Shown here: positions 7,214-24,031 of the stretch, piece by piece | How the letters are laid out: the number at the start of each line of letters is the position of its first letter | Numbering within the stretch: position 1 is the first letter of the stretch | Assembly (NCBI GenBank): GCA_018302745.1 | Contig: JAGVZH010000002.1 | Coordinates: forward strand, 1 to 32,906 | Length of the DNA stretch: 32,906 bases | Reading direction: 5' to 3' | Source: Candidatus Woesearchaeota archaeon | GTDB taxonomy: Archaea; Nanobdellota; Nanobdellia; SCGC-AAA011-G17; JAGVZH01 | The notes under the pieces: generated by a model | What the model was told of the DNA's origin: nothing | The model's database searches: none | Seen by the model: the letters and a program-made list of their open reading frames with translations, nothing else | Position numbers and translations under genes: made by a program

Positions 7214-7597
7214 ATTAAAAATACTATCTCCGCAACCATTATTGCGATTGTAATATTCTCTAAAGATACAAAAAATGCTGAAGATGTAAAAGCTGAAACA
7301 ATTACATCCAATGTATTGGTTGAAGACGGAATACAAGTTATACAAGTTGTATCAACTGGAGGAGGATACTCTCCAAGAACAACAAATGCAAAAGCAAATA
7401 TTGAAACTGTATTAAGAATTAATTCAGAAAACTCATACGGTTGTGAAAGATCTTTTAGAATACCTCAATTAGATATAAATGAGATATTACCTACAAACGG
7501 GATTACAGAGATTGAGCTTGGTAGTCCTAAGGCAGGTGAAGAGATATTTGGTTCTTGTAGTATGGGAATGTACACATTTACAATAAATTTTAATTAA
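7214..7597 (+). CDS. Cupredoxin-like copper-binding protein with N-terminal membrane anchor; probable non-canonical ATT start
   Basis: The track ORF starts at TTG 7316. The frame is open from 7214 and encodes (I)KNTISATIIAIVIFSKDTKNAEDVKAETITSNV, a signal-anchor-like helix plus linker. The C-terminal domain has YGCERSF...GSCSMGM, fitting Cys/Cys/Met ligand spacing. No ATG/GTG/TTG lies in frame between 7214 and 7316. Confidence 0.55.
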   Translation: MKNTISATIIAIVIFSKDTKNAEDVKAETITSNVLVEDGIQVIQVVSTGGGYSPRTTNAKANIETVLRINSENSYGCERSFRIPQLDINEILPTNGITEIELGSPKAGEEIFGSCSMGMYTFTINFN

Positions 7598-7604
7598 AGC
7601 ACAC

Positions 7605-9842
7605 ATGAAAGAAGAAACAGTAGCGATAAAAGGAATGCATTGTGCTAGTTGTGCTTTTAATATTGAAAACAAACTTACAAATAGTAAGGGTGTGAAAAAT
7701 GTAAAAGTAAACTATGCAACAGAGAAAGCAACAATAATATACGATGACACAGTTACATCAGTAGAGAATCTAAATGCTGATGTGAAAGATATTGGATACG
7801 AATTAGATATACATACAGATAATCATGCTCATCATAAGTTAGAAGAGTTAAACAAGCAAAGAAATAGACTCTACTTTCTACTACCAGTTGCCACCTTTCT
7901 CTTTCTTTTCATGCTCTACGATTTAATATCTCAAAGAGTATCATACCTTCCTATGATAGAGATAAATATGGTGGTATTTAACTCTATTCTCTTCTTGATA
8001 TCTACTGTAACTATATTTATCTTTGGTAAGCAATTTGTAGAAGGATTACTCAGATTCATCAGAGGTAAGGGTGCTGATATGGATACACTAATTGGATTGG
8101 GAACAATTGCAGCATATATTTACAGTACTGTACTCCTTGTATCTCTCCTTTTTAATATAGAACTAGGATTACCTGAATCAATGTATTATGATTCTGTAAT
8201 CATAGTAATTGGGTTTGTACTTCTAGGAAAGTTTTTAGAAGCAAGATCAAAGATAAAGACTGGAGAAGCAATACAGAAATTGTTAAACCTTCAAGCTAAG
8301 ACTGCAGTAGTTGAAAGAGATGGTAAAGAAAAAAAAATAGATGTATCAGAAATAGTAATAGGAGATATATTAATAATAAAGGCTGGAGCAAAGATTCCTG
8401 TTGATGGAAAGATAGTAAGTGGTTTGGGAGTATTAGACTTAGCAATGCTTACTGGAGAACCCATTCCTGTTGAAAAAACAATTGGAGATGATGTTTTTAG
8501 TGGTTCAGTAAACAAACAGGGATATTTTAAATTCAAAGCTCTAAAAGTTGGATCCGATACCATGCTTTCTACAATAATAAAAATGGTAGAAGAAGCACAA
8601 AACAGTAAAGCCCCTATACAAAACCTCGCAGATAAAATATCTAGTATATTTGTACCTACAGTATTAGTAATTGCAATCCTTTCTCTACTTGTATGGATAT
8701 TTGTAGGGCAACAGTACCTACCATTTAACGATGCCCTTACATATGGTATATCTTCTTTTGTTGCAGTATTAGTAATTGCGTGTCCATGTGCTCTAGGACT
8801 AGCAACACCTACTGCAATAATTGTAGGTGTAGGAAAGGGTGCTCAGAATGGAATATTAATTAAAAATGCAGAGAGTTTAGAAAAACTTTATAAGGTTGAT
8901 ACAGTAATATTTGATAAAACAGGAACATTAACAAAAGGACAGCCAGAGGTAACAGACATAATATTTAATGGTAAAGATAAGGATAATATACTAAGTCTTT
9001 TGTACTCACTTGAAGAGAAGTCAGACCACCCATTGGCAATAGCTATTCAAAATAAGGCGAAGGAGTTAAATATTAAACTTAAAGTAGTTGATAATTTTAA
9101 AAATATAGATGGTAGAGGTGTAAGTGGAACTATTGAAAAAAACTCATATTATGCAGGAAATTCCAAATTTATCGAAGATCTTGGAATAACTGTAGACAAG
9201 AATATTCTTAAAGAACTTTCTAAAGAAGGAAAAACACCAATAATATTTGCAAACAGTAAGGAGACACTAGCAATTGTTGTAATTGCAGATCAAATAAAAA
9301 AAGAAAGTAAAAAAGTAATAGAAGAACTACACTCTCTTGGAATAAAAACTGCAATGTTAACTGGAGATAATAGTAATGTTGCAAATAATATAGCAAAAGA
9401 CTTGGATATAGATATGGTATATGCAGAAGTATTACCAAATGAAAAAGCAAATATTGTTAAAAAATTACAAAACAATGGGAACTTTGTAGCTATGGTAGGA
9501 GATGGAATAAATGATGCTCCTGCACTTGCTCAATCAAATGTAGGTATAGCAATGGCAACAGGTACTGATATAGCAATAGAATCATCTGATATAACACTTC
9601 TTGGTGGAGATATTAGTAAATTACCAAAGGCATTAAAATTATCAAGGAATACGATGAAGACAATTAAACAGAATCTCTTCTGGGCATTCTTTTATAATAT
9701 ATTAGGAATACCTCTTGCTGCTGGTCTTTTCTATCCAATGTTTGGAATACTACTTGAACCTGCGTTTGCTGGTATCGCCATGGCATTAAGTAGTGTAACA
9801 GTTGTTAGTAACTCTTTAAGATTAAAATTAACTAAAATATAG
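7605..9842 (+). CDS. copA: Copper-translocating P1B-type ATPase
   Basis: N-terminal HMA domain GMHCASC, TM CPC motif (ACPCALGLATP), DKTGTLT phosphorylation site and GDGINDAP hinge. 745 aa. Confidence 0.93.
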   Translation: MKEETVAIKGMHCASCAFNIENKLTNSKGVKNVKVNYATEKATIIYDDTVTSVENLNADVKDIGYELDIHTDNHAHHKLEELNKQRNRLYFLLPVATFLFLFMLYDLISQRVSYLPMIEINMVVFNSILFLISTVTIFIFGKQFVEGLLRFIRGKGADMDTLIGLGTIAAYIYSTVLLVSLLFNIELGLPESMYYDSVIIVIGFVLLGKFLEARSKIKTGEAIQKLLNLQAKTAVVERDGKEKKIDVSEIVIGDILIIKAGAKIPVDGKIVSGLGVLDLAMLTGEPIPVEKTIGDDVFSGSVNKQGYFKFKALKVGSDTMLSTIIKMVEEAQNSKAPIQNLADKISSIFVPTVLVIAILSLLVWIFVGQQYLPFNDALTYGISSFVAVLVIACPCALGLATPTAIIVGVGKGAQNGILIKNAESLEKLYKVDTVIFDKTGTLTKGQPEVTDIIFNGKDKDNILSLLYSLEEKSDHPLAIAIQNKAKELNIKLKVVDNFKNIDGRGVSGTIEKNSYYAGNSKFIEDLGITVDKNILKELSKEGKTPIIFANSKETLAIVVIADQIKKESKKVIEELHSLGIKTAMLTGDNSNVANNIAKDLDIDMVYAEVLPNEKANIVKKLQNNGNFVAMVGDGINDAPALAQSNVGIAMATGTDIAIESSDITLLGGDISKLPKALKLSRNTMKTIKQNLFWAFFYNILGIPLAAGLFYPMFGILLEPAFAGIAMALSSVTVVSNSLRLKLTKI

Positions 9843-9843
9843 T

Positions 9844-10851
9844 ATGAGTAATACAAAAGAACTATATGTAACAGGGATGCATTGTAAGTCTTGTGAAGTC
9901 CTCATTGAAAACAAATTAAACAAAATAGATGGACTTAAGGATGTAAAAGCAGATTTAAATAGCAATAAAGTAAGTTTTAGAACAGAACAAAGTAATAAAG
10001 AAATCATTAAAGAAATTAATGATGTGATAAAACAACACGGATATACAGTACAAGAGCAACAATTAAAGAATAAAGTTGATTATAAAGAATTCGTATATGC
10101 CTTATTAATAGCTACTGGAATCTCTACAATATTTGTTGTAATTCAAAATTTAGGTGTAACAAATCTTGTTAACGCAGGAACATTAACATACCCAGTAGTG
10201 TTTCTAATTGGAGTAATAGCCTCAATATCTACATGTATGGCTGTAGTTGGAGGTCTAGTACTTTCAATATCCTCTACATATGCAAAAAGTAAATCTAAAG
10301 GTATTCCACTTACCCTATTCCATATTGCAAGATTACTCTCCTTTTTTATTCTTGGTGGAGTATTAGGATATATCGGAACTTTCTTTACCCTATCTTCCAC
10401 CTTCTACTTTGTAATCAGTACTGTTCTTTTCTTTGTAATGGTAATACTTGCTATAAACCTATTAGATATATTTCCATTTTTTAACAAATTACAATTAACT
10501 ATGCCAAAGCAACTAACATCTGGCATATTAAAAACAGAAAAGATGAAGAATATCTTTACTCCAATTCTATTAGGAGCAAGTACCTTTTTCTTACCATGTG
10601 GTTTTACTCAATCTATGCAGATTAATGCAATAGCTTCAGGTAGTACATTAAATGGTGCATTGATAATGTTAATATTTGCACTAGGTACATTACCAGTACT
10701 AGCTTTAATATCATTCGGCTCAACTAAACTAGCTAAATCAGCAAGATCCTCTCTTTTTTTTAGAGCTTCTGGCTTCTTAGTTCTTTTCTTTGCAATATAT
10801 ACCTTCCTTACTTCGTTAGTATCAATAGGTATTATTAAACCTATATTTTAA
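9844..10851 (+). CDS. HMA-domain fused to DsbD_2/TauE-like polytopic membrane protein
   Basis: N-terminal GMHCKSC heavy-metal-associated domain followed by ~6-7 TM helices with an FFLPCGFTQ motif. Confidence 0.65.
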   Translation: MSNTKELYVTGMHCKSCEVLIENKLNKIDGLKDVKADLNSNKVSFRTEQSNKEIIKEINDVIKQHGYTVQEQQLKNKVDYKEFVYALLIATGISTIFVVIQNLGVTNLVNAGTLTYPVVFLIGVIASISTCMAVVGGLVLSISSTYAKSKSKGIPLTLFHIARLLSFFILGGVLGYIGTFFTLSSTFYFVISTVLFFVMVILAINLLDIFPFFNKLQLTMPKQLTSGILKTEKMKNIFTPILLGASTFFLPCGFTQSMQINAIASGSTLNGALIMLIFALGTLPVLALISFGSTKLAKSARSSLFFRASGFLVLFFAIYTFLTSLVSIGIIKPIF

Positions 10852-10869
10852 CTTTAACTATTTATACAT

Positions 10870-11121
10870 ATGCATACAGAAAAACAAAAAGCTTTAACAA
10901 ATTTTAAAAAAGTACAAAGCTTAATGGGTAAGATGATTAAAATGACTGAGAATGACGAATATTGTATTGATATAATGCAACAGAATTTAGCAGCCATTGG
11001 GATACTTAAATCGGCTCATCAGATATTAATGGAGAATCATCTTAATCACTGTTTTACTACAGCTATGACATCAAAACAGAATAAGAAGAAAGAACAAACA
11101 GGACTTGGAAAATGGGCTTAA
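10870..11121 (+). CDS. csoR: CsoR/RcnR-family metal-sensing transcriptional repressor (C-terminus looks atypical or truncated)
   Basis: ENDEYCIDIMQQNLAAIGILKSAHQILMENHLNHC carries the Cys...His...Cys metal-ligand pattern of the DUF156/CsoR family. The tail ...KKKEQTGLGKWA lacks the usual amphipathic end of helix 3. Confidence 0.7.
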   Translation: MHTEKQKALTNFKKVQSLMGKMIKMTENDEYCIDIMQQNLAAIGILKSAHQILMENHLNHCFTTAMTSKQNKKKEQTGLGKWA

Positions 11122-12551
11122 GATGGAGCAGATTTTTTTACTCTATTATAAAGTCTTACTAATTCTCTTGGAATTCTGTCTTTAGGATCTATATTATTGG
11201 CAATAGTTGTTCTTAATATTTCTAACCTGTCTCTGTGTCTTCTAGCCTCTTCTAGGGATGCTGCTAACTGTCTTTTAATTTGTATTGAAGTCCCACATAA
11301 TTCCCTGATATTATTCCAATCTGCTGGAGGTGTCCAAATAGCATTTCTGATTTCATTTAATCTAGCTCTAAAAAGGTTTGTTAAGTTTGTTACACCTTCC
11401 ATTTCTTGATAAAACTCTGAACCTTCTCTAATCTCATTTATTAAAACATTCAAATCCTCACTATACACTCTTACTATTCTTTCTAATTCCTCAACTGCTC
11501 CAGGAATCCCTCTAAAACTTTCCCTTGCATCTCCTGCATATTGTTCTAAGTACGCTAAAAGCCTTTGAGGCTGTAAATTAAATATATTTTCTATAACTCT
11601 CTGAATAATTAGGTTATAATCTTCTATTTTATTTTCACTTTCTACTATGCTTGTCACTTTCTTTTTTACTACACCTTCAGCCCTTTTAATGTCCTCTTGG
11701 CTAATGCCTACTCTCAATACAGAAGAGTCAATTAATGGTATTATTCCCTCTAATTCTTTAATCTGCTTTGAAGTTTCTTTAACTTCATTAATAAAAGCAT
11801 TTCTTTCATCTGAAAGATTTGTTCCTCTTACACCTTTCCAAAAATCTCCAAAAACTCCTCCTAAATTTCTTAAGTCTTTTCCAGCTTTAGCAGATGCAGC
11901 CCTAGCAAGATCACTCATTTGCGGACTGGATGTTAACCTTTCATGGATATCCTGCATTGTTTTCTGGCTTGGAGTAAATGCTCTTCTGCCAAATGAGATT
12001 ATTCTAAATACAATTACAAAGAAGCTTATTAATGCTATGATGCTTATCAAGCCCCAAATAATATCCCATGGACTTTCTGACACAAGTTCGATAAAGAAGA
12101 ATTGACCAGCCAGCCATACAACAAAAAAAGCAATAGAAGCAGCCCCAATTTTGTCATTATATCCTGGAAATCCAATTCCAACAAACATTCTGTAAATTAA
12201 AAAAGCGCCAAAAATGATAAGCAAAGCTCCAGCAACAGGCCCTGCTATTTCTAATAAATCAGGCTCTAATCTTATAAGGCCTAAAGCTAAAAGCAAACCT
12301 AAAGCCCAGATAAGTATCTTTCCGCCTGTTTTTCCTTCCAGTCTTTTCCCCAATCCTATGTATACTACGCTGACAAAGAAAAGAAGGATTATTATTGCAG
12401 ATATCCAAGGTCCATTAGTAGGAGAAGTAATAAGGCCAGAAAGCTGCAGCATAATATTGCTAACAGGTTCAAAAAGATTTTGAGCTAGAACAGAAGGAAT
12501 TGCAAATAAAGAAGCTAAGAAAATGCTGCTTAATAACCTCTTTTTGTTCAT
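11118..12551 (-). CDS. Hypothetical polytopic membrane protein with long C-terminal alpha-helical domain (477 aa)
   Basis: Signal-like N-terminus MNKKRLLSSIFLASLFAIPSVLAQ, about 6-7 TM helices, then ~280 aa of helical and charged sequence. No family recognised. Confidence 0.55.
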   Translation of the reverse strand: MNKKRLLSSIFLASLFAIPSVLAQNLFEPVSNIMLQLSGLITSPTNGPWISAIIILLFFVSVVYIGLGKRLEGKTGGKILIWALGLLLALGLIRLEPDLLEIAGPVAGALLIIFGAFLIYRMFVGIGFPGYNDKIGAASIAFFVVWLAGQFFFIELVSESPWDIIWGLISIIALISFFVIVFRIISFGRRAFTPSQKTMQDIHERLTSSPQMSDLARAASAKAGKDLRNLGGVFGDFWKGVRGTNLSDERNAFINEVKETSKQIKELEGIIPLIDSSVLRVGISQEDIKRAEGVVKKKVTSIVESENKIEDYNLIIQRVIENIFNLQPQRLLAYLEQYAGDARESFRGIPGAVEELERIVRVYSEDLNVLINEIREGSEFYQEMEGVTNLTNLFRARLNEIRNAIWTPPADWNNIRELCGTSIQIKRQLAASLEEARRHRDRLEILRTTIANNIDPKDRIPRELVRLYNRVKKSAPS

Positions 12552-12582
12552 ATTATCACTCTTTATAATGAAACTTTAAGAA

Positions 12583-12594
12583 ATATTTAAATAT
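12583..12594. promoter_or_regulatory. Palindromic TATA-like element ATATTTAAATAT between divergent genes
   Basis: Perfect palindrome centred ~27 nt upstream of the trm5 ATG (12616) and ~37 nt upstream of the divergent ATG (12551). Confidence 0.4.
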
Positions 12595-12615
12595 AAACCT
12601 TTCGGATTAAATGAA

Positions 12616-13335
12616 ATGAAATCATACAATTTAATAGGTTCTATAGCTGTTTTAAACGAGAAGACGAGAAATAAGGAAAAAACAGCTGAAGAACTGTTAA
12701 AAAAGCACAAAAACATAAAAACAGTAGTGATAAGCAAAAGTATTCATTCTGGATTATACAGGTTGAGAAAAACAAAGCATATTTTGGGTGAAAAAACAAA
12801 AGAAACTATACATAAAGAAAATAAATCAGTATTAAAGCTAAATATAGACGCATGCTATTTCTCACCAAGAACTTCCTCAGAAAGATTAAGGATAGCAAAA
12901 TTAGTAAAGAAAAGTGAAGTCATCTTAGTAATGTTTTCTGGAATAGCCCCTTATCCAATTGTAATAGCAAAAAATGCAAATCCTAAAAAAATTTATGGTA
13001 TTGAAACGAACAAAGAAGCGCACAAATATGCTTTGGAGAATATAAAATTAAACAGATTAAACAATATAGAATTAATAAGAGGAAATGTAAAAAAAGTAAT
13101 GCCTAAATTAAAAATAAAATTTGACAGAATCATAATGCCTCTTCCAAAAACATCTTTTAGATATTTTGACCTCCCAATTAAAAATTTAAAGAAAAAAGGA
13201 TATTTACATTATTACTTGTTTGCTAAAAGACTTCCTAAAAAAGATATTAAAGGATTAAAAATTAAGAAAGTAACAAGATTAAACCAGATTTCTCCTGGAA
13301 AATACAAGTACTGCATAGACTTTCAAAAAGCTTAA
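12616..13335 (+). CDS. trm5: tRNA (guanine37-N1)-methyltransferase Trm5/Taw2-family, short form lacking the D1 domain
   Basis: Starts with a D2-like YNLIGSIAVL. SAM motif I VMFSGIAPYPIVIAK and the IIMPLPKTS catalytic (NLPK-like) loop are present. 239 aa. Confidence 0.65.
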   Translation: MKSYNLIGSIAVLNEKTRNKEKTAEELLKKHKNIKTVVISKSIHSGLYRLRKTKHILGEKTKETIHKENKSVLKLNIDACYFSPRTSSERLRIAKLVKKSEVILVMFSGIAPYPIVIAKNANPKKIYGIETNKEAHKYALENIKLNRLNNIELIRGNVKKVMPKLKIKFDRIIMPLPKTSFRYFDLPIKNLKKKGYLHYYLFAKRLPKKDIKGLKIKKVTRLNQISPGKYKYCIDFQKA

Positions 13336-13359
13336 ATACATTGCAAATAAAATTTAATA

Positions 13360-14010
13360 ATGCCAAAAAAGAGAAAAAATAGGTCAGCAAAAAAAAGAGG
13401 CAAAAAACCTTCTTTAAAGTTAATTGATCAAAAGTTGAACTTAATTCTGAAAAAAGAGAATAGGCAGCTAAAAGGGCAGAAGAAATTTTTTAAACTGGAA
13501 AAAGAGCAGTTAGAGGAAGTTGAAGATTTTGAAAACTTGGAAAGAAAGCAGTTAAAGGAGCTTTCTGGCATTGAAGAATTGGAAAGAGAAATAAAAGAGC
13601 AGGTTTCTCCGCATCCATTAAGAAGAATTACAATTAGGGATATAAGCAAAGCTTTGATAGGAGCATTTATAGGAATAATTTCTCATTTTGCATTTTCAGA
13701 AGGGGCACATTTAGCAGAAGGAGTGTCTGTAGGAAGAGCATCTTTTATTTTATTAGTGTCTTTTTTAATAGGGTTTATTTTTATTTACCTTACTGGTTAT
13801 AGAAAAATTTTAGACAGAAAACTTTTATTTTTCCTGCCTGTTAGATTAGTGGCAATATATTTAGTAACTTTAGCAACTGTATTTTTTGTGTTATACACTT
13901 TTAATTTCACAGTCGGGGCAGACATAAGTTTAATATACAAGCAGGTAGCTGTAGTATCATTGCCAGCTATTATTGGGGCAAGCGCAGCTGACTTAATCGG
14001 AAGAGAATAA
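13360..14010 (+). CDS. Hypothetical protein: basic/coiled-coil N-terminus plus 4-TM C-terminal domain
   Basis: MPKKRKNRSAKKRGKKPS..., a charged heptad-like stretch, then four hydrophobic helices. Confidence 0.5.
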   Translation: MPKKRKNRSAKKRGKKPSLKLIDQKLNLILKKENRQLKGQKKFFKLEKEQLEEVEDFENLERKQLKELSGIEELEREIKEQVSPHPLRRITIRDISKALIGAFIGIISHFAFSEGAHLAEGVSVGRASFILLVSFLIGFIFIYLTGYRKILDRKLLFFLPVRLVAIYLVTLATVFFVLYTFNFTVGADISLIYKQVAVVSLPAIIGASAADLIGRE

Positions 14011-14399
14011 TGGAAGAAAAGGAAAAAAGAAATTTTAGAATAAAATCTACATTTCATAATTTAATAGATAAACTTATAGATACTCTAATAAGCGAGATAA
14101 ATGAAGGCAGGCAGACAAAACTTACTGAAGATTTCCAGAAATATTTAATAGAGTTAATATCAATAACTGGAATACAAAGTAAAAAAGAACAAGATTCCGG
14201 ATTAAAGAGAATATTTGAGAAACAAGAAAAATCCTTAAAGAGTTTGTTATTATCAATTAACGAAATTAAAAAGAAAATTAAATTAGGAGAGACTACAGAC
14301 AGCTCATCAATAAGAAATTCTGCAGATGAATTTAAAAAATTGCTTAAAGAAGAAATAGCTTCTAAAAGCAGTATGAAAAAAAACAAAGAAGCAGCCTAA
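14010..14399 (+). CDS. Hypothetical coiled-coil protein (129 aa)
   Basis: K/E-rich helical ORF whose start overlaps the upstream stop (TAATG at 14008-14012). The antisense ORF 14054..14386 has the F/S/L-rich look of a shadow frame. Confidence 0.4.
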   Translation: MEEKEKRNFRIKSTFHNLIDKLIDTLISEINEGRQTKLTEDFQKYLIELISITGIQSKKEQDSGLKRIFEKQEKSLKSLLLSINEIKKKIKLGETTDSSSIRNSADEFKKLLKEEIASKSSMKKNKEAA

Positions 14400-16186
14400 A
14401 TATTCAATTTTAATCTCATTCTTGATGATTTGATTGCACTAGGAGCTTCTCCACCATGCCAGCTGAATCTTGGCCTTATTCTCATTGGATAAATTCTTTC
14501 GGAATTATCATCTAAAATGACAGCAGCACCTTTCTCACCAGGCAATTCATTTACAGCTTCTGTTAACCCTCTTACCATATAACTTTGCATCATTGCATTT
14601 AATGCATCAACATCTTTTTTAGCAGTTATTTTATGAGCTATTATTAAATCACTTTGAGTTAAAACATCTCCATGTATCTTTCCAGGCTGCTGTGTAGCTA
14701 GGATTAAACTGATTCCTGGCTGCCTTCCTTCCTTGAGTATTGTAACTAATGCATCTGTAGCAGCATTCTTTCCTTTTTCTGGAAGAAATTCATGGCTTTC
14801 ATCTATGACCAGCCAGACCATCGGCAATTTGCTTTCAGTTTCTTCTTCACCAGTTTCTCCCAAGTAACTATAGCCTTTTTGTACAGCATCTAATTCCTCC
14901 TGCTTTCTGGTAATCATTCTTTCTGTAAATAATTTTTTTGCTATCAAACCTACTGCCAGTCCTTTGATTCCCCATCCTCCAGGAGTTGTAGCATAGCAGC
15001 TTACATCTAAAACAGAGACTTGCCCTCCTTTGATAATGTCTTTTATTTTTGTCCCCCCTTTATCAAATAATCCCCAGTCATTTGCTGTTAACAATAGGCT
15101 GATTGTTTTATTTTTTGTATTTTCATCAGATTGAATATCTCTTTGAACAGCATCTGCGAAATCCTTAACACTATAATTTTGCCCTTCCAATCTTTTTATT
15201 ACTCTATGCATTAATACTCCTGAAGAGCTGAACTGCTCTATTCCAAAAGCATTGCACCAGTCTAAAGCATCTAATTCATTTGGTTTAATTGAAAATGGAA
15301 AATCTGTTGGGATTCCATCTTCCAAATACTGTTGGTAATATCCCTTTGGGGTGTAAATCTTAATGTCTAATCCTTTGCTTTCTAAATTCCATTGCTTCAA
15401 CAAATCTTCGTCCTTTCTGTTTTCAGTTTTCATTGTCCAAAAAATTCCCATAGTATCTAAAATTAAAACAGCAACATTATTTTTGACTTCTTCAGGAAGA
15501 TCAGCAACACCTTCTGCTATGACTCCTTGTGAATAGCTATTATGGACTATAATATCATTAGCAACAAAATTATGAAAGTTTGGAACATTAATATCATAAA
15601 CTGTAAACTTTCCTTCTAGTAATTCCATACTTACTATTTCGTCCCAAAAAATATCCGATTCAGCAAGTAGTTTAATGCCTTGATTTTGATCAGCCTCAGA
15701 GATTTGTAATAAAGTATCTCTTGATGGACTATATCTTAATCTTTCCCTCATTGCTTTCGGATGTTTATAACCAAAAGCCCTTCCAACCTCTGCCCAATTT
15801 TTAGGTTTGTATAAATCCCATACTTCTTTTGGAATTGTATCAATATTTGGATTTCTGATAGTTTTATTTAAATAATCTAAAGCTAATCCTTCTTTAATTT
15901 TTTTTATACCAAAGAAACCTATATTTTCTATAAATTTTTTAACATTTACCCCATTAAGCACTAATTCAAAGGCATCCTTATAATAACCATTATATTTAAC
16001 TTTTTTATATCTAAGTTTGGATAAAATGTCAAATCGTAGTAATAAATTTTGTATTTGTCTAATAAGCTTTTCAGAAGAAGAACTGTATGATACCTCCCAA
16101 TCTCCTTTATTTAGATGATAAATGCTTCCATCGCATGAAAATAATCTATTTAAGAATAATCTAATGCCTTCTTTATTTAAGGCCAT
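14396..16186 (-). CDS. HerA/DUF87-like P-loop ATPase: C-terminal intein part (residues 1-216) plus C-extein (from Ser217)
   Basis: LAGLIDADG-2 FLNRLFSCDGS; intein blocks F/G VYDINVPNFHNFVANDIIVHN followed by +1 Ser. The extein SYSQGVIAEG...MVWLVIDESHEF (Walker B)...ATQQPG is typical of HerA-like ATPases. Confidence 0.8.
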   Translation of the reverse strand: MALNKEGIRLFLNRLFSCDGSIYHLNKGDWEVSYSSSSEKLIRQIQNLLLRFDILSKLRYKKVKYNGYYKDAFELVLNGVNVKKFIENIGFFGIKKIKEGLALDYLNKTIRNPNIDTIPKEVWDLYKPKNWAEVGRAFGYKHPKAMRERLRYSPSRDTLLQISEADQNQGIKLLAESDIFWDEIVSMELLEGKFTVYDINVPNFHNFVANDIIVHNSYSQGVIAEGVADLPEEVKNNVAVLILDTMGIFWTMKTENRKDEDLLKQWNLESKGLDIKIYTPKGYYQQYLEDGIPTDFPFSIKPNELDALDWCNAFGIEQFSSSGVLMHRVIKRLEGQNYSVKDFADAVQRDIQSDENTKNKTISLLLTANDWGLFDKGGTKIKDIIKGGQVSVLDVSCYATTPGGWGIKGLAVGLIAKKLFTERMITRKQEELDAVQKGYSYLGETGEEETESKLPMVWLVIDESHEFLPEKGKNAATDALVTILKEGRQPGISLILATQQPGKIHGDVLTQSDLIIAHKITAKKDVDALNAMMQSYMVRGLTEAVNELPGEKGAAVILDDNSERIYPMRIRPRFSWHGGEAPSAIKSSRMRLKLNI

Positions 16187-16788
16187 TATACTCTTAGGAA
16201 TGTATTTTTCAAGAGAACTTTTATTGTTCCTTTAAGGAATCTGCCTGTTGTTTTATCTCTGATTATTTTTGAATCTAAAACTATTGTATTATGGTGGTGC
16301 TGGGTTAATCTGTAACATCCTTTTTTCTCTTCAACAACATCTAAAGCAGAATCAAATTTCTTCATACTTTCTTTAAAATCTTTTATTATATCAGGGTCGC
16401 TATTTGAGAATAAAGCAATTTTTTTAGTATGACCCTCTGCTATAAAATATGCAAGAAGTTTTATTCTATGGTGAGGTATAGAATTATTTCCAAAACTATC
16501 TAATCTTCTTGGAACAGCTATTCTAGAACCAACTTTTAACTCATTTACAGGTCTCCAGCTTTTTATAGTTAATAAAGGATGTTCTGGGGTTAATTTAATT
16601 TCCCTACCACTTCTTAATCTTAAATGTATAAGATCTTTAACACTCCTTTTGAAGAAATCTCTTTTTTGTAATTTTTCGATTTTTAATTTTTCATTTAAAC
16701 CTAGAATTTTGTTTTTATTATTCTCTAATTCTTTAATCGGAATTTGCCTTCCATCATCCAACTGTATTAAAGTGTCTTCATGCACACA
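15539..16788 (-). mobile_element. Intein with LAGLIDADG homing-endonuclease domain, inserted in the Walker A P-loop; internally frameshifted
   Basis: Cys1 codon at 16788-16786 and terminal Asn codon at 15541-15539. Excision joins FICGKRGSGK|SYSQGV (GxxGxGKS). Blocks seen: A CVHEDTLIQLDDG, B GREIKLTPEHPLL, LLAYFIAEGH, FLNRLFSCDGS, HNFVANDIIVHN. The segment is 1250 nt, not a multiple of 3. Confidence 0.85.
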
Positions 16789-16974
16789 TTTCCCAGATCC
16801 CCTTTTACCGCATATGAATACAACATGAGATCTATTAACATCCATATAGATATTATTTGCTAAAGAAACTTCCCTGCCCATTTTAACATACTGTCTTCCA
16901 ATTAGGATTAGTCCTTTGTCGCCAAACCTTTTTTTATCAGCTTCGCTTCTGCCAACAATTATATCTGTACCCAT
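16186..16974 (-). CDS. HerA/DUF87-like P-loop ATPase: N-extein (62 aa, ending GKRGSGK) plus N-terminal intein part
   Basis: MGTDIIVGRSEADKKRFGDKGLILIGRQ...VVFICGKRGSGK, then the intein from Cys63. The ORF ends at TAA 16188-16186, which overlaps the ATG of the next ORF (TAATG). Confidence 0.8.
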   Translation of the reverse strand: MGTDIIVGRSEADKKRFGDKGLILIGRQYVKMGREVSLANNIYMDVNRSHVVFICGKRGSGKCVHEDTLIQLDDGRQIPIKELENNKNKILGLNEKLKIEKLQKRDFFKRSVKDLIHLRLRSGREIKLTPEHPLLTIKSWRPVNELKVGSRIAVPRRLDSFGNNSIPHHRIKLLAYFIAEGHTKKIALFSNSDPDIIKDFKESMKKFDSALDVVEEKKGCYRLTQHHHNTIVLDSKIIRDKTTGRFLKGTIKVLLKNTFLRV

Positions 16975-17005
16975 ATGACCCTCTTTTGCAAATTAAACAA
17001 AAAGC

Positions 17006-17020
17006 TTTTAAATATATAAG
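17006..17020. promoter_or_regulatory. TATA-like element TTTTAAATATATAAG shared by divergent herA-like and htpX genes
   Basis: Centred ~30 nt upstream of the htpX ATG (17044) and ~40 nt upstream of the minus-strand ATG (16974). The latter is preceded by GAGGGT, which is SD-like. Confidence 0.4.
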
Positions 17021-17043
17021 GATTTCTAATAGTAAATTCTAAC

Positions 17044-17892
17044 ATGGCAATAATAAACCATATTAAGACTGTACTTTTACTGGGAATATTAACAGCTATT
17101 TTATTATTCTTAGGAAGCTTATTTGGTCCAACTGGATTAACAGTGGCTATTGTGTTTGTAGCTGCAATGAACTTAATTACTTATTTCTTCTCTCACAAAT
17201 TAGTTTTATTAATATACAGGGCAAAGGAAGCAAAGAAATCAGATTATCCGAAATTGCATAAAACTATTGAAGAATTAGCTAAAAAAGCAAATATACCAAA
17301 ACCAAAAATTTATACAATACCTACAAATAATCTTAATGCGTTTGCATCGGGAAATTCTCCAAGAAATGCAGTAGTTGCCTGCACAGATGGAATTTTAAAA
17401 GCTTTAAATCATAATGAATTGGAAGGAGTATTAGCTCATGAGATAAGCCATGTTAAAAACAGAGATATCCTAATTACAACTATAGCTGCTACAATAGGAG
17501 GAATAATATCTTATCTAGCTATGATGGCAAGATTTGGCGCTATATTCGGAGGTATGGGGAACAATAGGGATTCTGGAAATATATTTGCATTACTAGCATT
17601 ATCAATATTAGCACCAATAGCAGCATTAGTTGTTCAATTGGCTATTTCAAGAACTAGGGAATATCAGGCAGATGCTTCTGGAGCAAAATTGATCAAAGAT
17701 GGAGAGCCTTTAGCCTCTGCATTAATTAAATTACATGAGCACAATAAGCATAATCCAATAAGATTTGGCAGCCCTGCAACCTCTTCTTTGTTTATTATTA
17801 ATCCTTTTAGCTCAAGCTTTTTAGTCAATATTTTATCAACGCATCCTGATTATAAAAAGCGAGTTGAAAGATTAAAGGGCATGAAGTTTTAA
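17044..17892 (+). CDS. htpX: Zinc metalloprotease HtpX (M48 family)
   Basis: HEISHVKNRD (HExxH), two N-terminal and two central TM helices, and downstream EYQADA. 282 aa. Confidence 0.9.
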   Translation: MAIINHIKTVLLLGILTAILLFLGSLFGPTGLTVAIVFVAAMNLITYFFSHKLVLLIYRAKEAKKSDYPKLHKTIEELAKKANIPKPKIYTIPTNNLNAFASGNSPRNAVVACTDGILKALNHNELEGVLAHEISHVKNRDILITTIAATIGGIISYLAMMARFGAIFGGMGNNRDSGNIFALLALSILAPIAALVVQLAISRTREYQADASGAKLIKDGEPLASALIKLHEHNKHNPIRFGSPATSSLFIINPFSSSFLVNILSTHPDYKKRVERLKGMKF

Positions 17893-18180
17893 TTAATTTA
17901 TCTTTTCAAGGAATTGTTTAATTTCGCTAACTTTTCTTGGATTCAAAGAAACATGATCACTAGTTCCTTTGCCTGTTCTTTTTGGAAGAATAATTATCCA
18001 TTCATTATTAGTTAATTTTTTTAATGTTTTTTCTACTGCTTTTTGCCCTTTGTGAGTGTTTCTATAATGTTCTGGGACTCCTTTTACAACAAAGTCAAGT
18101 GGAGTATGTTTTCCTCCCCAAACATTTGTACGGACAAGCTTTTGCAGAATAATCTTTTTTAGTTTATCCTCTTCTTCCAT
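17893..18180 (-). CDS. Hypothetical small protein (95 aa), possibly winged-helix
   Basis: ORF abuts the htpX stop with zero spacing (TAATTA). No family recognised. Confidence 0.4.
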   Translation of the reverse strand: MEEEDKLKKIILQKLVRTNVWGGKHTPLDFVVKGVPEHYRNTHKGQKAVEKTLKKLTNNEWIIILPKRTGKGTSDHVSLNPRKVSEIKQFLEKIN

Positions 18181-18284
18181 AAATAGTGTGATGGATTTAA
18201 TTCTTAATAAGCATTGCCTTCGCTTTTTATATATTGATATATAAAAAAGAAAGATTTAAATAATAGCTTATTCTTACAAAGAAC

Positions 18285-18443
18285 ATGGCAGAAGAATCAA
18301 TATTCTTAGAACATGTGGGAGACAGCCCAAGAATGAGAGTCTTACAATACTTAATAGAAGGCAGGGATTTTGATTTTACTCTAACAGATATGCTTAATGC
18401 TGGAGTAAGCTGGGGAACCTTAAATATGCTAATCCCTAAATGA
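18285..18443 (+). CDS. Short ORF (52 aa) resembling the N-terminal half of a small archaeal winged-helix regulator; possibly truncated
   Basis: Hand translation gives MAEESIFLEHVGDSPRMRVLQYLIEGRDFDFTLTDMLNAGVSWGTLNMLIPK*. The GDSPR-RVL-L pattern is HTH-like, but the recognition-helix/wing part is missing. It is below the ORF-track size cutoff. Confidence 0.3.
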   Translation: MAEESIFLEHVGDSPRMRVLQYLIEGRDFDFTLTDMLNAGVSWGTLNMLIPK

Positions 18444-18545
18444 AGTTGAAGTTCCAGCGCAATAAATATTGCTGATGTAGAAGTAAACAGGTGGCTTAAA
18501 ACAATTAATAAAAAACTTTATAAATAGCCTTCTTTCAAAGAGACT

Positions 18546-18830
18546 ATGAAAGTTTCAGAATTACAGGCAAGACAGGGAAAAGTAAATATAGAACTGGAAA
18601 TTATTTCTGTTGAGACTCCAAGAGAATTTAATAAATTTGGAAATACAGGAAGGGTTGCAAATGCAGCAGCAAAGGATGATTCTGGAGAAATAAAATTAAC
18701 TTTATGGAATGGAGAGATAGACCAGGTAAAAGCAGGGGATAAAGTTAGAATAACAAATGGTTATGTTTCAGAATTCCAAGGAGAAAAGCAGTTGTCAGCA
18801 GGAAAATTTGGAAAGTTAGAAATTATTTAG
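18546..18830 (+). CDS. Single OB-fold ssDNA-binding protein (short RPA/SSB-like)
   Basis: 94 aa. VNIELEIISV...RVANAAAKDDSGEIKLTLWNGEIDQVKAGDKVRITNGYVSEFQGEKQLS is the classic OB pattern of short archaeal RPA-like proteins. Confidence 0.7.
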   Translation: MKVSELQARQGKVNIELEIISVETPREFNKFGNTGRVANAAAKDDSGEIKLTLWNGEIDQVKAGDKVRITNGYVSEFQGEKQLSAGKFGKLEII

Positions 18831-19982
18831 CCAGCTAATCTCATCATCATTCAATTCTAATTCATTACTCACGTCCTTATCTATAAAATTTTTATAATAC
18901 TCAAAATTCTTGATGCTTTGCTTAACAGAAGTGTGAACCTTATCTGCCATCTTTTCTGCTATCGATTTCTTTTTGGCATTTTTAATATTTGCCTGCCATA
19001 TCTTCAGTGGCTTCATGCTTCTCTTGTAATTTACAAATCTCATATTTCCATCTTTCAGAGAATTTATCCCTATAGTCATCAAAGCATTCATATAAACTAA
19101 AAATCTCCAGTACTGCCACCTTTTTATTCTTCCGTCATAAACTTTGACTCTGGACAAATAATCAAAAGCCTTTCTTAATTTTTCTCCTTTATGCTCTAAA
19201 GGGATATTCTCTTCAATCCATAAAAAACATTCATCAAGATTAGCATTTACATCTTCAAAAACATTCAAAACGTTTATTCCTTTATCTTCTTGGAAAACTA
19301 TTGACAATGAATTGAAAATAGTTTCTTCTTTTTTCCTCTTGCCAAGTAAATCCAGGTCATTCAATGTTATTTCTTTTTTATTTACAAATACTTGTATGTC
19401 ATTGATACAGGCTCTTAAGTCGTTTCTATTGCTCTTCACTAAATCTTCTAAAACTTCTCTTTTAGCATAAATCCCTTCTTTTGAGCAGATATAAGAGAGA
19501 AAATTAACAATATCATAATTTTTTAAGTCATCAAATTTTATTAACTGGCATTTTTTCTTTAAATCATTAAGCTTCTTGTCATAAGGATCATTAGCAGTCA
19601 TAATAACTGGAAATTTGGCTTTGGATATTAATTTTGCCAGAACTTGTATTCCACCTCTGTCTTTAACTCCTGAAAAATTATCAACTTCATCTATCAAGAT
19701 TATCTTTCCTTTAGAAAACAAGCTTTCCTGCTTTAGGCTGTTTCCAACTATCCTTTCAATATTTTCCTTGTTTCTAATCTCACTTGAATTAATCTCAAAA
19801 ACTTCATAACCAATATCATTTGCTAATGCATAAACAGAACATGTTTTTCCGTTTCCAACACTTCCCCAGATTATTACAGGAGTTTTTTCTTTAACATGCT
19901 TTAATAATTCTTTTAATTGTTTTTCCTGACCAACAACCTCCTTTAAGTTTGCAGGTTTGTATTTTTCTGTAAGAAGTTTCAT
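18816..19982 (-). CDS. rfcL: Replication factor C large subunit
   Basis: TEKYKPANLKEVVGQ, Walker A GSVGNGKT, EINSSEIR, Walker B ILIDEVD, and GG...MTANDPY. Confidence 0.85.
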   Translation of the reverse strand: MKLLTEKYKPANLKEVVGQEKQLKELLKHVKEKTPVIIWGSVGNGKTCSVYALANDIGYEVFEINSSEIRNKENIERIVGNSLKQESLFSKGKIILIDEVDNFSGVKDRGGIQVLAKLISKAKFPVIMTANDPYDKKLNDLKKKCQLIKFDDLKNYDIVNFLSYICSKEGIYAKREVLEDLVKSNRNDLRACINDIQVFVNKKEITLNDLDLLGKRKKEETIFNSLSIVFQEDKGINVLNVFEDVNANLDECFLWIEENIPLEHKGEKLRKAFDYLSRVKVYDGRIKRWQYWRFLVYMNALMTIGINSLKDGNMRFVNYKRSMKPLKIWQANIKNAKKKSIAEKMADKVHTSVKQSIKNFEYYKNFIDKDVSNELELNDDEISWLNNF

Positions 19983-20974
19983 TTTGAAAAAGATGCCAAT
20001 AAAGCTTCCAGCTGAACATATTCATCACTACCTTCTACCATTCTAAATTCAATCTCTCCACATTTATCAACTAAATCAACTTTTTTAGTTTGATCAATAT
20101 CTAGATTCCATATTTCTTTTTGTATTTGTTTTATGATATCTAATCCGCTCAATCCGTGTTTTAGCATAACATCCAGCAATTTATTTCTAGCCTTAACAAA
20201 TTCACTGTTCAAAGCCAATTCAAGAATCTCTTTGATTTCTTTGGGTTTTGCCTGGCTTACAATATCATAAATTAACTTATCATCGATGTTTTTGCTTATT
20301 GAAGCGCAGCTTTGCAGAATATTTTCTAACTTCCTGCAGTCTCCTTCAGAAATTTCATATAAACTGTCAATCGCAGAATTGCTTATCTTTAAACCTTCTT
20401 CTTTGGCAATTTTATCTATAATTTTTTTAATCTCTTCCTTTGCCAGAGGCTTAAATCTAAAAACAGTGCATCTGCTTTGGATTGGATCTATGATCTTTGA
20501 TGAAAAATTGCAGCTTAAAATAAATCTGCACGTATTTGAATAAGTTTCCATGGTTCTTCTCAAGGCTTGTTGCGCTTCTTTAGTTAGGGAATCGCATTCA
20601 TCCAAATAAATAATCTTAAATGGGAAATCACCAATCGCTTTAGTTCTTGCAAAGTCCTTAATTGTATTTCTTACTACATCGATGCCTCTGTCATCACTAG
20701 CATTCGTCTCCAAAAAATTACTCTTCCAATTTTCGCCATATAATTTTTTTGCTACTACCAGAGATAAAGAAGTCTTTCCAGTGCCGCTGTAGCCTGCGAA
20801 AAGCAAGTGAGGCATATTCTTTAATTCCACAAAAGCCTTTACTCTTTCAACTATTTTGTCCTGACCTTTAATGTCCTCAAAAGTCTGCGGACGGAATTTC
20901 TCTATCCAAATCTTTGATTCATTTCCCCCCATTTTAGCCATAAAACACTTAATATTTATATAAGTTTGGTTCAT
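19979..20974 (-). CDS. rfcS: Replication factor C small subunit (true start probably Met12 at 20941 or Met15 at 20932)
   Basis: WIEKFRPQTFEDIKGQ, GYSGTGKTS, NASDDRGID, YLDECD, SRC motif (QSRCTVFRF). TATA-like TTTATAAAG and TTATATAAAT lie at or inside the first 11 codons. Confidence 0.9.
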   Translation of the reverse strand: MNQTYINIKCFMAKMGGNESKIWIEKFRPQTFEDIKGQDKIVERVKAFVELKNMPHLLFAGYSGTGKTSLSLVVAKKLYGENWKSNFLETNASDDRGIDVVRNTIKDFARTKAIGDFPFKIIYLDECDSLTKEAQQALRRTMETYSNTCRFILSCNFSSKIIDPIQSRCTVFRFKPLAKEEIKKIIDKIAKEEGLKISNSAIDSLYEISEGDCRKLENILQSCASISKNIDDKLIYDIVSQAKPKEIKEILELALNSEFVKARNKLLDVMLKHGLSGLDIIKQIQKEIWNLDIDQTKKVDLVDKCGEIEFRMVEGSDEYVQLEALLASFSK

Positions 20975-21001
20975 AGTCTTTATAAACCCGTATAATGGAA
21001 T

Positions 21002-21014
21002 AAAATATATAAAT
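21002..21014 (+). promoter_or_regulatory. TATA-like element AAAATATATAAAT upstream of archaeal ileS
   Basis: Centred ~28 nt upstream of ATG 21036, which suggests a leaderless or near-leaderless transcript. Confidence 0.4.
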
Positions 21015-21035
21015 CACGATTAATAGTCAAAGAAA

Positions 21036-23942
21036 ATGTATGATTTTAAAAAAGTAGAGCAGGAAGCAAGAGATTATTGGAAGAAAATAAATTTATTAGA
21101 AAAAATAAATAAAAAAAATAAATCCAATAAAAACTATTTTTTATTAGATGGTCCGCCATACGCTAATGATATACCTCATGTGGGCCATGTAAGAAATACA
21201 GTCTATAAAGATTTTAATATAAGGCTGGCATTCTTAAAAGGCTATAATGTGCTTTTTCAGCCGGGTTTTGATACGCATGGTCTTCCAATTGAAAATAAAG
21301 TAGAAAAAAAACTAAATCTAAAATCAAAAAAAGATATAGAAAAATTAGGAATTAAAAAATTTACTGAATTATGCAAAGCATCTGCAACTGATAATAAAGA
21401 TTTGTGGATGGATGTTTATGATAAACTAGGCTCATGGTACTCATGGAAAGAACCTTATTTAACCTATAACAATTCTTATTTAGAGTCTGCATGGTGGACT
21501 TTTAAACAAATTTGGGATAAAGGATATGTTTACGAAGGAAAAAAGCCGGTTTTTTGGTGCCCTTCTTGTGAAACTGCATTAGCAGGCTATGAAGTTACAG
21601 ATTCTTATGCTATGAAAAAAGATCCTTACATTCTGATCAAATTTAAAGTTAAAAACACTAAAAACGACTTTTTATTAGTCTTCACAACTACTCCTTGGAC
21701 TTTAATCTCAAATGTGGCTATAGCAGCCAAAGCTGACGAAAACTATACTAAAGTTGAAACCTCTCAAGGAAATCTGATTTTGGCAAAGGAAAGGTTAGAA
21801 GTCCTTACTGAAGCTGGTATAGGATATAAAATATTAGAAGAATTCAAGGGCAAGAAATTGGATGGCATAGAGTATGAACATATTATAGATGTTCCAGAAC
21901 AGAAAGAATTAGAAAAAAATCCAAGAGCACATAAAGTTTACATGTCAGTTCCAATATTAAAAGAAAGAGTTTCTGCGAAAATGAGAACTAAAAAAGAGAC
22001 TAAAGGTGAAGATGTTTTTGAGGATTTTGTAACTGTCAAAGAGGGTACAGGTTTGGTGCACACTGCTCCAGGACATGGTAAAACAGACAATGAAGTTGGA
22101 AAACATTATGGATTGCCAGAACCATCACCATTAGATGATTCATGTAGATATACGGATGAAGCAGGACAATTCTCTGGCATGTTTGTAAAAGATGCAGATA
22201 AAGATATCTTAGAAGTTTTAGAAAAAACAGGAAAATTGTTGTTTAGCTCAACTGTATCCCATAAGTATCCTTTATGCTGGAGATGTAAATCACCTTTAAT
22301 TTTTAGATTAAGCAACCAATGGTTCATAAAAATAGATCCAGTTAAGCAAAAGATGCTTGACGGAAACAAAAAAGTTGACTGGTATCCGGAATTTGCAAGA
22401 GAAAGATTTGAAGCATGGGTTTTAAATGCAGATGACTGGAATGTTTCAAGACAGAGATATTGGGGTATCCCTATGCCTATATGGAAATGCATCTGCGGTG
22501 AGATAAAAGTTATCGGATCTTTGAAAGAATTAGAAAAAAATTCTACGAAAAAATTATCAAGTAACTTTGATTTGCATATCGCCTCTGAAGTAAAATTAAA
22601 ATGTGATAAATGCAAAGAGGAGATGAAAAGGATAAATGATATATTTGATGTATGGTTTGATTCAGGAGTTGCTCCCTGGGCATCATTAGGATATCCTTTT
22701 GAGGGTAAAAAGCTGTTTGAAGAGCACTATCCTGTTAGCAGAATAAATGAATCTCAGGATCAAATTAGGGGATGGTTTTATTCGCTGATGTTTTGCGGAG
22801 TTGCCGCGCATGATAAAATTCCCTATAAAGAGGTTTCCATGCCTGGTTGGGTGGTTGATGATAAAGGAGAAAAAATGTCAAAATCTGTAGGTAATGTTGT
22901 TTATGCGAAAGATGCAATTGAAGAAGTTGGTGCAGATAACCTAAGATTTTATTATATGTGGGATATTGCTCCTTACAGTTTACAATTATTCAACAAAGAT
23001 GCAATTAAAAAAGAAGTTTGGAAAGTGTTTAATGTATTGGTAAATCTAAATACTTATTTAACTAACCTGACAGATAAAATAAAAAAAGTAAGTATCAAAG
23101 AAATTGAGGATAAATGGCTCTTATCAAAGCTTAATACTCTAATCAAAGAATATTCTGAAAATTTAGATAAATTTGAATACCATACAGCAACAAGGAAGTT
23201 GTCAGAGTTTATTCTTAATAATTTAAGCAGAGAATATATCCATATGATAAGGGAAAGAGCAGATAATAAGGATGAAGCTGTTGCTTATGTCATCTTTGAA
23301 TCCTTATCTAAAGTATTATCTTTATTAGCACCAATCACACCCCACTTATCTGAAAATGAATATCAAAAACTAAAAGAAAAATATGCACTAAAAGATGAGT
23401 CTGTCCATTTGTTGGGGTGGCCTAAAGAGGATAAAAAATCAATTAACTCCGAGCTAGAACAAAATTTTGAAATTATAAAAGATATAATCACAAAAATATT
23501 ATCTGAAAGGGAAAAAATAAAATTAGGTGTAAGATGGCCATTATCTTCTGTTGAAGTTAATTGTGACAGTAAAACAGAAAAAGCTGTAAAAACATTATCA
23601 AAAATAATAGAGGTACAAACCAATATCAGGAGATTAAAAACAAAGGAAGCAAAAGAATTAAGCATAATATTGGATTCAAAGCTCACGCCTGAATTAGAAA
23701 GAGAAGGATACGCTAGGGAAATAGCCAGAAAAATACAGGCATTAAGAAAAAATGCAGGATTAAACAAATCAGATGAAATTAATTTATCAATTAACTCAGA
23801 GTATTCTTTGGCTGAACTAGAGAGCTATATAAAAAATAAAGTAGGGGCAGCAAAATTAATCTTTGAAAAATCTGAATATAAAAATAAATTTAAAGAAAAA
23901 ATCAAAGACAATACATTCGAAATAGCTTTTGATAAATTATAA
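21036..23942 (+). CDS. ileS: Isoleucyl-tRNA synthetase, archaeal type
   Basis: 968 aa with PPYANDIPHVGH (HIGH), GFDTHGLPIE, FWCPSCETALAGYEV, TTTPWTL, DWNVSRQRYWGIPMPIW and KMSKS. Confidence 0.9.
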   Translation: MYDFKKVEQEARDYWKKINLLEKINKKNKSNKNYFLLDGPPYANDIPHVGHVRNTVYKDFNIRLAFLKGYNVLFQPGFDTHGLPIENKVEKKLNLKSKKDIEKLGIKKFTELCKASATDNKDLWMDVYDKLGSWYSWKEPYLTYNNSYLESAWWTFKQIWDKGYVYEGKKPVFWCPSCETALAGYEVTDSYAMKKDPYILIKFKVKNTKNDFLLVFTTTPWTLISNVAIAAKADENYTKVETSQGNLILAKERLEVLTEAGIGYKILEEFKGKKLDGIEYEHIIDVPEQKELEKNPRAHKVYMSVPILKERVSAKMRTKKETKGEDVFEDFVTVKEGTGLVHTAPGHGKTDNEVGKHYGLPEPSPLDDSCRYTDEAGQFSGMFVKDADKDILEVLEKTGKLLFSSTVSHKYPLCWRCKSPLIFRLSNQWFIKIDPVKQKMLDGNKKVDWYPEFARERFEAWVLNADDWNVSRQRYWGIPMPIWKCICGEIKVIGSLKELEKNSTKKLSSNFDLHIASEVKLKCDKCKEEMKRINDIFDVWFDSGVAPWASLGYPFEGKKLFEEHYPVSRINESQDQIRGWFYSLMFCGVAAHDKIPYKEVSMPGWVVDDKGEKMSKSVGNVVYAKDAIEEVGADNLRFYYMWDIAPYSLQLFNKDAIKKEVWKVFNVLVNLNTYLTNLTDKIKKVSIKEIEDKWLLSKLNTLIKEYSENLDKFEYHTATRKLSEFILNNLSREYIHMIRERADNKDEAVAYVIFESLSKVLSLLAPITPHLSENEYQKLKEKYALKDESVHLLGWPKEDKKSINSELEQNFEIIKDIITKILSEREKIKLGVRWPLSSVEVNCDSKTEKAVKTLSKIIEVQTNIRRLKTKEAKELSIILDSKLTPELEREGYAREIARKIQALRKNAGLNKSDEINLSINSEYSLAELESYIKNKVGAAKLIFEKSEYKNKFKEKIKDNTFEIAFDKL

Positions 23943-24031
23943 CTTAGAAGTAATGAACATTTTGTTTATAAATAGTTTTATATATCTTTCTATCTTTTAA
24001 AATAAAAATTTACTTTTGAGGGGGTTAAATT

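Follow-up and report, generated by a model that had tools for sequence, protein, structure and literature searches.

Inteins of P-loop ATPases which carry LAGLIDADG endonucleases are well known, and include those of Sce VMA1 (PI-SceI), Mtu RecA and archaeal RFC. Mini-inteins bear in-frame deletions inside the endonuclease-coding region, while natural split inteins (cyanobacterial DnaE, Nanoarchaeum equitans PolB and the gp41/NrdJ 'fractured genes'; Dassa et al. 2009, PMC2677866) are inherited arrangements in which the endonuclease halves are absent, or in which a free-standing endonuclease gene lies between the two intein halves. Interrupted genes can also enter the public record through short-read assembly: local assembly errors, which are particularly prominent when IDBA-UD is the assembler, carry incorrect gene sequences into databases, and chimeras arise from time to time (Chen et al. 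2020, Genome Res, PMC7111523).

The stretch of DNA analysed here (the window) is the 32,906 nt of contig JAGVZH010000002.1, deposited as Candidatus Woesearchaeota archaeon, and it contains an intein-bearing ATPase gene which is divided between two ORFs. The intact allele of this gene resembles the bifunctional P-loop inteins in its Cys-1, TxxH, two LAGLIDADG motifs, HN followed by Ser+1, and Walker A insertion site; it differs from them in its host, an uncharacterised 442-aa DUF87/HerA-like ATPase of DPANN archaea, and the copy in the window differs further in being interrupted by a 58-nt deletion. In silico, the two ORFs of the window, with N- and C-terminal intein halves and a break in the endonuclease-insertion region, are reminiscent of the natural split inteins. 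In contrast to these, the window is a singleton among intact alleles, each half retains half a LAGLIDADG domain, and nothing in the arrangement is adapted to the split. The deletion in the window also lies inside the endonuclease-coding region, as in mini-inteins, but it is of 3n+1 nt whereas theirs are in frame, and the mini-intein found among the relatives (L071) occupies another P-loop site. The similarities to described mis-assemblies are a lesion private to one contig, a broken gene in the public record, N-gap artefacts in sibling scaffolds, a chimeric join between organisms, and independent assemblers which return uninterrupted sequence (PMC7111523). The window differs in that it contains no Ns, and the formal criterion for a mis-assembly is a junction without read support, which we infer here. 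The split is most likely not a real feature, and the underlying intein is a new example of a well-known kind.

Organisation of the interrupted gene and its intein

ORF1 proceeds from a Walker A motif through Cys-1 and intein blocks A and B to the first LAGLIDADG motif. ORF2, whose frame is offset by -1 from that of ORF1, contains the second LAGLIDADG motif, the intein C-terminus (VHN/S; a slash marks the splice or insertion site throughout) and the ATPase C-extein. Coordinates are given in Table 1. Pfam Intein_splicing was matched in both ORFs and LAGLIDADG_3 in ORF2. The ORF1 stop codon and the ORF2 start codon (16186..16184) share one nucleotide and so form the sequence TAATG. The frame of ORF2 is open further upstream, back to a TAA at 16234..16232, with the translation RNNKSSLEKYIPKSIMALNKEG, and reads ...NNKSSLEKYIPKSIMALNKEG ahead of the ATG. 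The intein segment in the window (16788..15539) is 1250 nt in length, or 417 codons minus 1 nt. The earlier note on this DNA, which was made from its letters and ORFs, had given the same ORF coordinates, frame offset, stop/start overlap, intein segment, open downstream frame and upstream stop, and all of these were confirmed. Separately, it was observed that a stop 13 codons past the frameshift is unremarkable at 32% G+C.

Table 1. Features of the window, with positions numbered from its first nucleotide (strand '.' denotes features not assigned to a strand)
Feature	Position	Strand	Evidence or remark
ORF1, 262 aa	16974..16186	-	
ORF2, 596 aa	16186..14396	-	
N-extein, DUF87/HerA-FtsK-superfamily ATPase, 62 codons, ending in Walker A GKRGSGK	16789..16974	-	Intein-free orthologue L046, GKRGSGK/SYS
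Intein N-terminal part, in the ORF1 frame, up to the deletion junction	16226..16788	-	Pfam Intein_splicing, TIGR01445
Motifs of the N-terminal part: Cys-1 CVHEDTLIQL, block B LTPEHP, LAGLIDADG motif 1 LLAYFIAEGH	within 16226..16788	-	
Junction of the private 58-nt deletion; placement ambiguous by 2 nt ('AC')	16225..16228	.	Alignments with L001-L010
Out-of-frame tail of ORF1, IKVLLKNTFLRV, with TAA at 16188..16186 and TAATG at 16188..16184	16186..16225	-	
Intein C-terminal part, in the -1 frame: block D KYIP, blocks F and G, end VHN	15539..16231	-	LAGLIDADG_3, Intein_splicing, TIGR01443
LAGLIDADG motif 2, LFLNRLFSCDGS, in the C-terminal part	within 15539..16231	-	Pfam LAGLIDADG_3, E 1.4e-17
C-extein from Ser+1 (SYSQG...), 380 codons and stop, Walker B VWLVIDESHEF	14396..15538	-	End-to-end alignment with 442-aa intein-free orthologue
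Second private deletion, 143 nt	18441..18442	.	107-aa gene truncated to a 52-aa ORF, 18285..18443
Third private deletion, 38 nt, in the bacterial part	7225..7226	.	Start codon of a cupredoxin gene removed
Chimeric join, 21 nt common to the bacterial (up to 11098) and archaeal (from 11078) contig families	11078..11098	.	

The N-terminus of the intein was matched by TIGR01445 (intein_Nterm, residues 63-136, E 3.6e-14), and the features expected there of a class-1 intein were found as C63 (CVHEDTLIQL) and the TxxH of block B (LTPEHP; TIGR01445, PF14890). Those expected at the C-terminus were found as IIVHN/SYSQ at 15547..15536 (TIGR01443). Two LAGLIDADG motifs with acidic residues (LLAYFIAEGH and LNRLFSCDGS; PF14528, E 1.4e-17 and 8.3e-21) are present. 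The insertion site is the P-loop itself, between the Lys and the Ser of GKRGSGK/S, and excision of the intein in silico recreates a 442-aa host which matches the 442-aa intein-free orthologue L046. The earlier note's description of a P-loop intein within a HerA-like ATPase of 442 aa after splicing, with a GSGK/SYSQ junction and with splicing blocks and both Walker motifs intact, therefore holds. At least 23 sibling contigs have the insertion in frame, whereas in the window it is out of frame; the best NCBIfam matches of the intact allele were to models of intein-containing DnaB, RFC, GyrA and RecA. The sequence of the underlying element is that of an ordinary bifunctional class-1 intein, with Cys-1, a C-terminal His-Asn, Ser+1 and a predicted two-motif LAGLIDADG endonuclease.

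Intact alleles and the 58-nt deletion

A search with the repaired protein sequence returned an 878-aa protein with 97% identity, and the 90% clusters which hold the two ORFs of the window include an 878-aa member, P0122. This protein corresponds residue for residue to the two products of the window, with additional residues between ...RFLKGT and KSSLEKYIP. At least 23 contigs of aquifer metagenomes, from ENA, JGI and Logan assemblies, encode P0122 without interruption; on L003, for example, the intact allele occupies 10001..12637. Ten of these were fetched and, by alignment and BLAST, were identical to the window at the DNA level (100%) across the gene, with the exception of 58 nt which are present in each of them and missing from the window (TAACAATACTTTTAAAAAAAGAAGTATAAGGTTATTATTTGAGCAAGAAGGATTATAC). 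The size and position of the deletion, and its restriction to a single contig, were observed directly in these comparisons. No substitution separates the window from the intact alleles over 2,579 nt, and all motifs are intact.

The intact intein is 1308 nt in length (436 codons). As the deletion is of 3n+1 nt, it breaks the ORF and shifts the frame by -1. It removes the endonuclease segment (T)NNTFKKRSIRLLFEQEGLY(N), which lies just before block D (K-x-IP), and the NNTFKKRSIRLLFEQEGLY segment was conserved in all 38 of the other homologues aligned with P0122. The earlier note had placed the loss of a single nucleotide within a 49-nt interval of an intein of 417 codons. The frame change does fall inside those 49 nt and the segment is 1 nt short of 417 codons; the alignment with the ten contigs, however, gives a deletion of 58 nt rather than 1 nt, and 436 codons for the intact intein.

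The TAATG overlap had been described in the earlier note as a typical coupling arrangement. In every intact allele the same nucleotides are read in frame (AGT ATA ATG GCC, S-I-M-A; ATAATGG), which argues that they are not an evolved coupling signal, and the overlap is best read as a by-product of the frameshift, in which an out-of-frame TAA meets a pre-existing internal Met codon. The anti-Shine-Dalgarno (SD) duplex predicted at the ORF2 ATG (-2.4 kcal/mol) falls among the values of real genes, and the SD context of this ATG is no better than background; most genes here, however, lack an SD.

Neither the 262-aa nor the 596-aa product was found in any other record by exact look-ups in public assemblies. 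A 35-mer from the right flank had no match in the metagenome and genome contig collections, and BLAST of the intein DNA gave no secondary matches elsewhere in the window or the loci, and thus no repeats that could account for a difficulty in assembly. The comparison was extended to 80 species representatives of the Pacearchaeota, Woesearchaeota and Nanoarchaeota. The matched region was one uninterrupted reading frame in 78 of them, and the two exceptions were broken elsewhere, in scaffolds with problems of their own; an inherited split was not found in any lineage among these 80 representatives.

Other defects of the contig and origin of the deletion

Positions 11078 to 32906 of the window follow archaeal contigs collinearly and are essentially identical to them. 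These ~21.8 kb contain no private substitution and two private deletions, the 58-nt deletion and a second of 143 nt. Sequence to the left of 11078 has no relationship to these contigs; positions 3882..11098 are instead 99-100% identical to a contig family with bacterial gene content (copper ATPase, CsoR-type repressor, Peptidase_S11, LiaF and PspC proteins), which includes the NCBI genome contig MEUO01000010.1. The only sequence common to the two sources at the join is 21 nt (AGAATAAGAAGAAAGAACAAA), which marks the window as, on the evidence of these alignments, an inter-domain chimera of a bacterium and an archaeon. A further private deletion (38 nt) lies in the bacterial part. Three private deletions distributed across the DNA of two organisms on one contig point to assembly, not biology.

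An association of such lesions with the type of assembly was also observed directly. Private multi-nucleotide indels or blocks of Ns were present at the locus in all four of the 'ANAN16' scaffolds (L001, L004, L009 and L011) and in none of the seven contigs compared from MEGAHIT, SPAdes, JGI or Logan. Several ANAN16 scaffolds contained 10-N gaps, duplicated flanks or foreign filler. L005, a SPAdes contig which shares the two distinguishing SNPs of the window, was intact at both the 58-nt and the 143-nt sites. Scaffold L011, from sample SAMN03842451, lacks 5 nt whose right boundary coincides with that of the 58-nt deletion of the window, and it has a 10-N gap inside the stretch that is missing from the window at 18441/18442. 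It is very unlikely that the lesions of L011 and the window coincide at both sites by chance, and the co-localisation could reflect a failure that is sequence-specific and common to one pipeline, real micro-heterogeneity, or a break hotspot. A different private deletion in the same gene, of 27 nt and in frame, was present in the JGI contig L098, which indicates that small deletions turn up with more than one pipeline. IDBA-UD was used to assemble comparable aquifer data, which were then patched with ra2.py (PMC5220378).

The apparent split is thus very probably a local mis-assembly, by which 58 nt were lost from one contig of a population with an intact intein, as judged from comparison of the assembled sequences. 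The lesion is private to the window, independent assemblies of the same population agree with one another, and other assembly errors (the chimeric join and the deletions at 18441/2 and 7225/6) occur on the same contig. The population itself carries the gene as a single ORF of 878 codons, in a DPANN archaeon from an aquifer, and the 442-aa ATPase would be made by ordinary cis-splicing, as the intact splicing blocks suggest. The 58 nt would most likely have been lost during short-read assembly, scaffolding or gap repair, in which case reads supporting the 58-nt junction should be absent. The earlier note had listed an error as the first of its three readings, and in spirit this is supported; its proposed homopolymer indel was wrong, and a 58-nt deletion of the mis-assembly type takes its place.

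It is unlikely, though conceivable, that the deletion is real and either rare or specific to the sample, so that the window would hold a recent null allele, or nascent pseudogene, which yields no functional protein. The junction has 2 nt of microhomology, other small private deletions occur in the gene (5 nt in L011, 27 nt in L098), and deletions are to be expected in an endonuclease domain that is dispensable for splicing, with mini-intein alleles present in relatives. A recent loss should nevertheless be weighed against the absence of the deletion from at least 23 other contigs, the closest haplotype (L005) included, the lack of any accompanying substitution, and the other deletions on the contig, one of them in the DNA of another organism, together with the chimeric join. 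The intact state of the gene in 78 of the 80 related species also suggests selection. For the pseudogene which the earlier note had offered as its third reading, nothing was found beyond the lesion itself, and further degenerative changes were not found over the 2,579 nt compared.

It is highly improbable that the deletion is real and that the cell survives by trans-splicing of the two products, the window then holding an incipient split intein broken inside its endonuclease. The break does lie in the endonuclease region, as in all known natural split inteins but one (PMC2677866), but it takes out a conserved segment of the endonuclease. An ATG is available at the TAATG overlap; both, however, pre-exist in the intact alleles, which indicates no adaptation to the split. 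No splicing block (A, B, F or G, together with Cys-1, HN and Ser+1) and neither Walker motif is damaged, yet the arrangement is not inherited, being present on one contig where at least 23 others from that population are intact, the ORF is uninterrupted in 78 of the 80 related species, and the contig is demonstrably mis-assembled elsewhere. Inteins split artificially in the endonuclease region often need refolding or assisted association in order to splice. Complementary LAGLIDADG half-domains might in principle act as an association interface, giving a split intein at birth beside intact alleles, and this too must be regarded as very doubtful. A real split would be a natural example of the opening step in split-intein evolution. 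The earlier note had itself named sister genomes with a continuous intein as the observation that would count against its split-intein reading, and at least 23 sister contigs restore a continuous intein, so that the reading fails a test set beforehand.

A single-base homopolymer sequencing error at an A-run between 16204 and 16225, which the A4 and A5 runs of the interval and the net frame change of -1 had brought into consideration, has a negligible probability and in its literal 1-nt form is refuted by alignment with the intact contigs, in which 58 nt and not 1 are additional, while the 19 residues that every homologue has would still be missing after the addition of one A. Programmed -1 ribosomal frameshifting at G_AAA_AAT was likewise dropped, as the frame change is due to the missing 58 nt, and slippage would leave the 19 conserved residues absent.

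With mis-assembly as the preferred explanation, the practical value of the locus is one of caution about a deposited metagenome contig. The fragments of 262 aa and 596 aa are listed as 'proteins' in public protein databases, and a fusion contig of bacterial and archaeal DNA could mislead binning, the inference of horizontal transfer and intein surveys. For this locus, the intact 878-aa allele P0122 should be used.

The host ATPase and its relatives

The spliced extein (442 aa) matched Pfam DUF87 ('Helicase HerA, central domain') with 39.6 bits against a threshold of 23.2. The score for the HerA equivalog model NF040819 was 39.9 bits against a cut-off of 970, and the extein fell far below every NCBIfam HerA cut-off. 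Matches to HerA-like proteins in the PDB were confined to its C-terminal ATPase core. As the superfamily domain DUF87 is the only one to pass its threshold, 'HerA-like' is the most that can be said of this predicted ATPase.

The gene occurs in several forms among the relatives. An intein-free form of about 442 codons is represented by L046 (81% identity, GKRGSGK/SYS), and the form which carries the same intein as the window is about 2.6 kb in length. A form of about 2.4 kb has only 34-40% identity to P0122 and possibly contains a more divergent intein. L071 carries a mini-intein of about 127 aa at a second P-loop site, GKRG/SGKS, and two inteins are presumably present in homologues of about 1310 aa.

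Chimeric structure of the window

The window is a chimera with a bacterial left part (1..11098) and an archaeal right part (11078..32906), the overlap between the two at the join being only 21 nt. The left part was found to be 99-100% identical to bacterial contigs carrying a copper-resistance cluster (e.g. NCBI MEUO01000010.1), while the right part corresponds to a DPANN archaeal locus with genes for MCM, TBP, RFC, Topo VI and IleRS. The archaeal FEN1 gene, which comes next in all other contigs, is absent from the window. The CsoR-like ORF at the join is listed in the table below together with the other affected genes.

Altered genes in the window and in related contigs
Feature	Contig	Coordinates	Observation
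CsoR-like ORF	window	10870..11121	fusion product across the chimeric join; 83 aa versus 90 aa in authentic contigs
Private 143-nt deletion	window	18441/18442	ORF 18285..18443 cut to 52 aa, from the gene of a 107-aa protein
Private 38-nt deletion	window, bacterial part	7225/7226	cupredoxin gene loses its ATG and first codons
PolB split	L004	21331..22637	201 + 605 aa versus 809 aa elsewhere
DUF2391 gene split	L001	13023..13782	10-N gap and foreign filler at the break
Intein-bearing ATPase gene	L098 (JGI 3300025308)	24..2633	27 nt (AVPRRLDSF) privately deleted, in frame, within the N-terminal splicing domain

Deletions and broken genes

The gene for the 107-aa protein was whole in all ten fetched sibling contigs covering its deletion site (L001-L009 and L011), with L011 having a 10-N gap at the matching place. 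The 38 nt missing from the bacterial part were kept in 6/6 matching bacterial contigs. L011, another scaffold from the same site, is also broken at the same intein spot as the window, where a 5-nt deletion (TATAC, at approximately position 10010, corresponding to window position 16225) shares an identical right boundary with the 58-nt deletion of the window and gives a 267-aa plus 614-aa split, unlike that of the window. Further genes were observed to be disrupted in the ANAN16 sibling scaffolds L004 and L001.

The ATPase gene in other records and its intein sites

The 19 residues absent from the window are present in P0001 (SRC, SRR3989344), a protein-level assembly of the ATPase gene; scattered non-conservative changes in this record, including D-to-V in Walker B and G-to-C, look like read or assembly noise. 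The match to another contig, L099 (ENA ERZ5996431; coverage 1.8), was limited to the central 1351 nt, and on either side of this stretch L099 has unrelated sequence.

In relatives, inteins are inserted at two different positions of the ATPase P-loop: GKRG|SGKS, which holds a mini-intein of approximately 127 aa (L071, 3001..4710), and GKRGSGK|S, which holds the full intein. Intein-free alleles also occur in the family (L046, 3001..4329), and homologues of 1306-1319 aa apparently carry two inteins each; a single gene family thus shows inteins at several stages of their life cycle.
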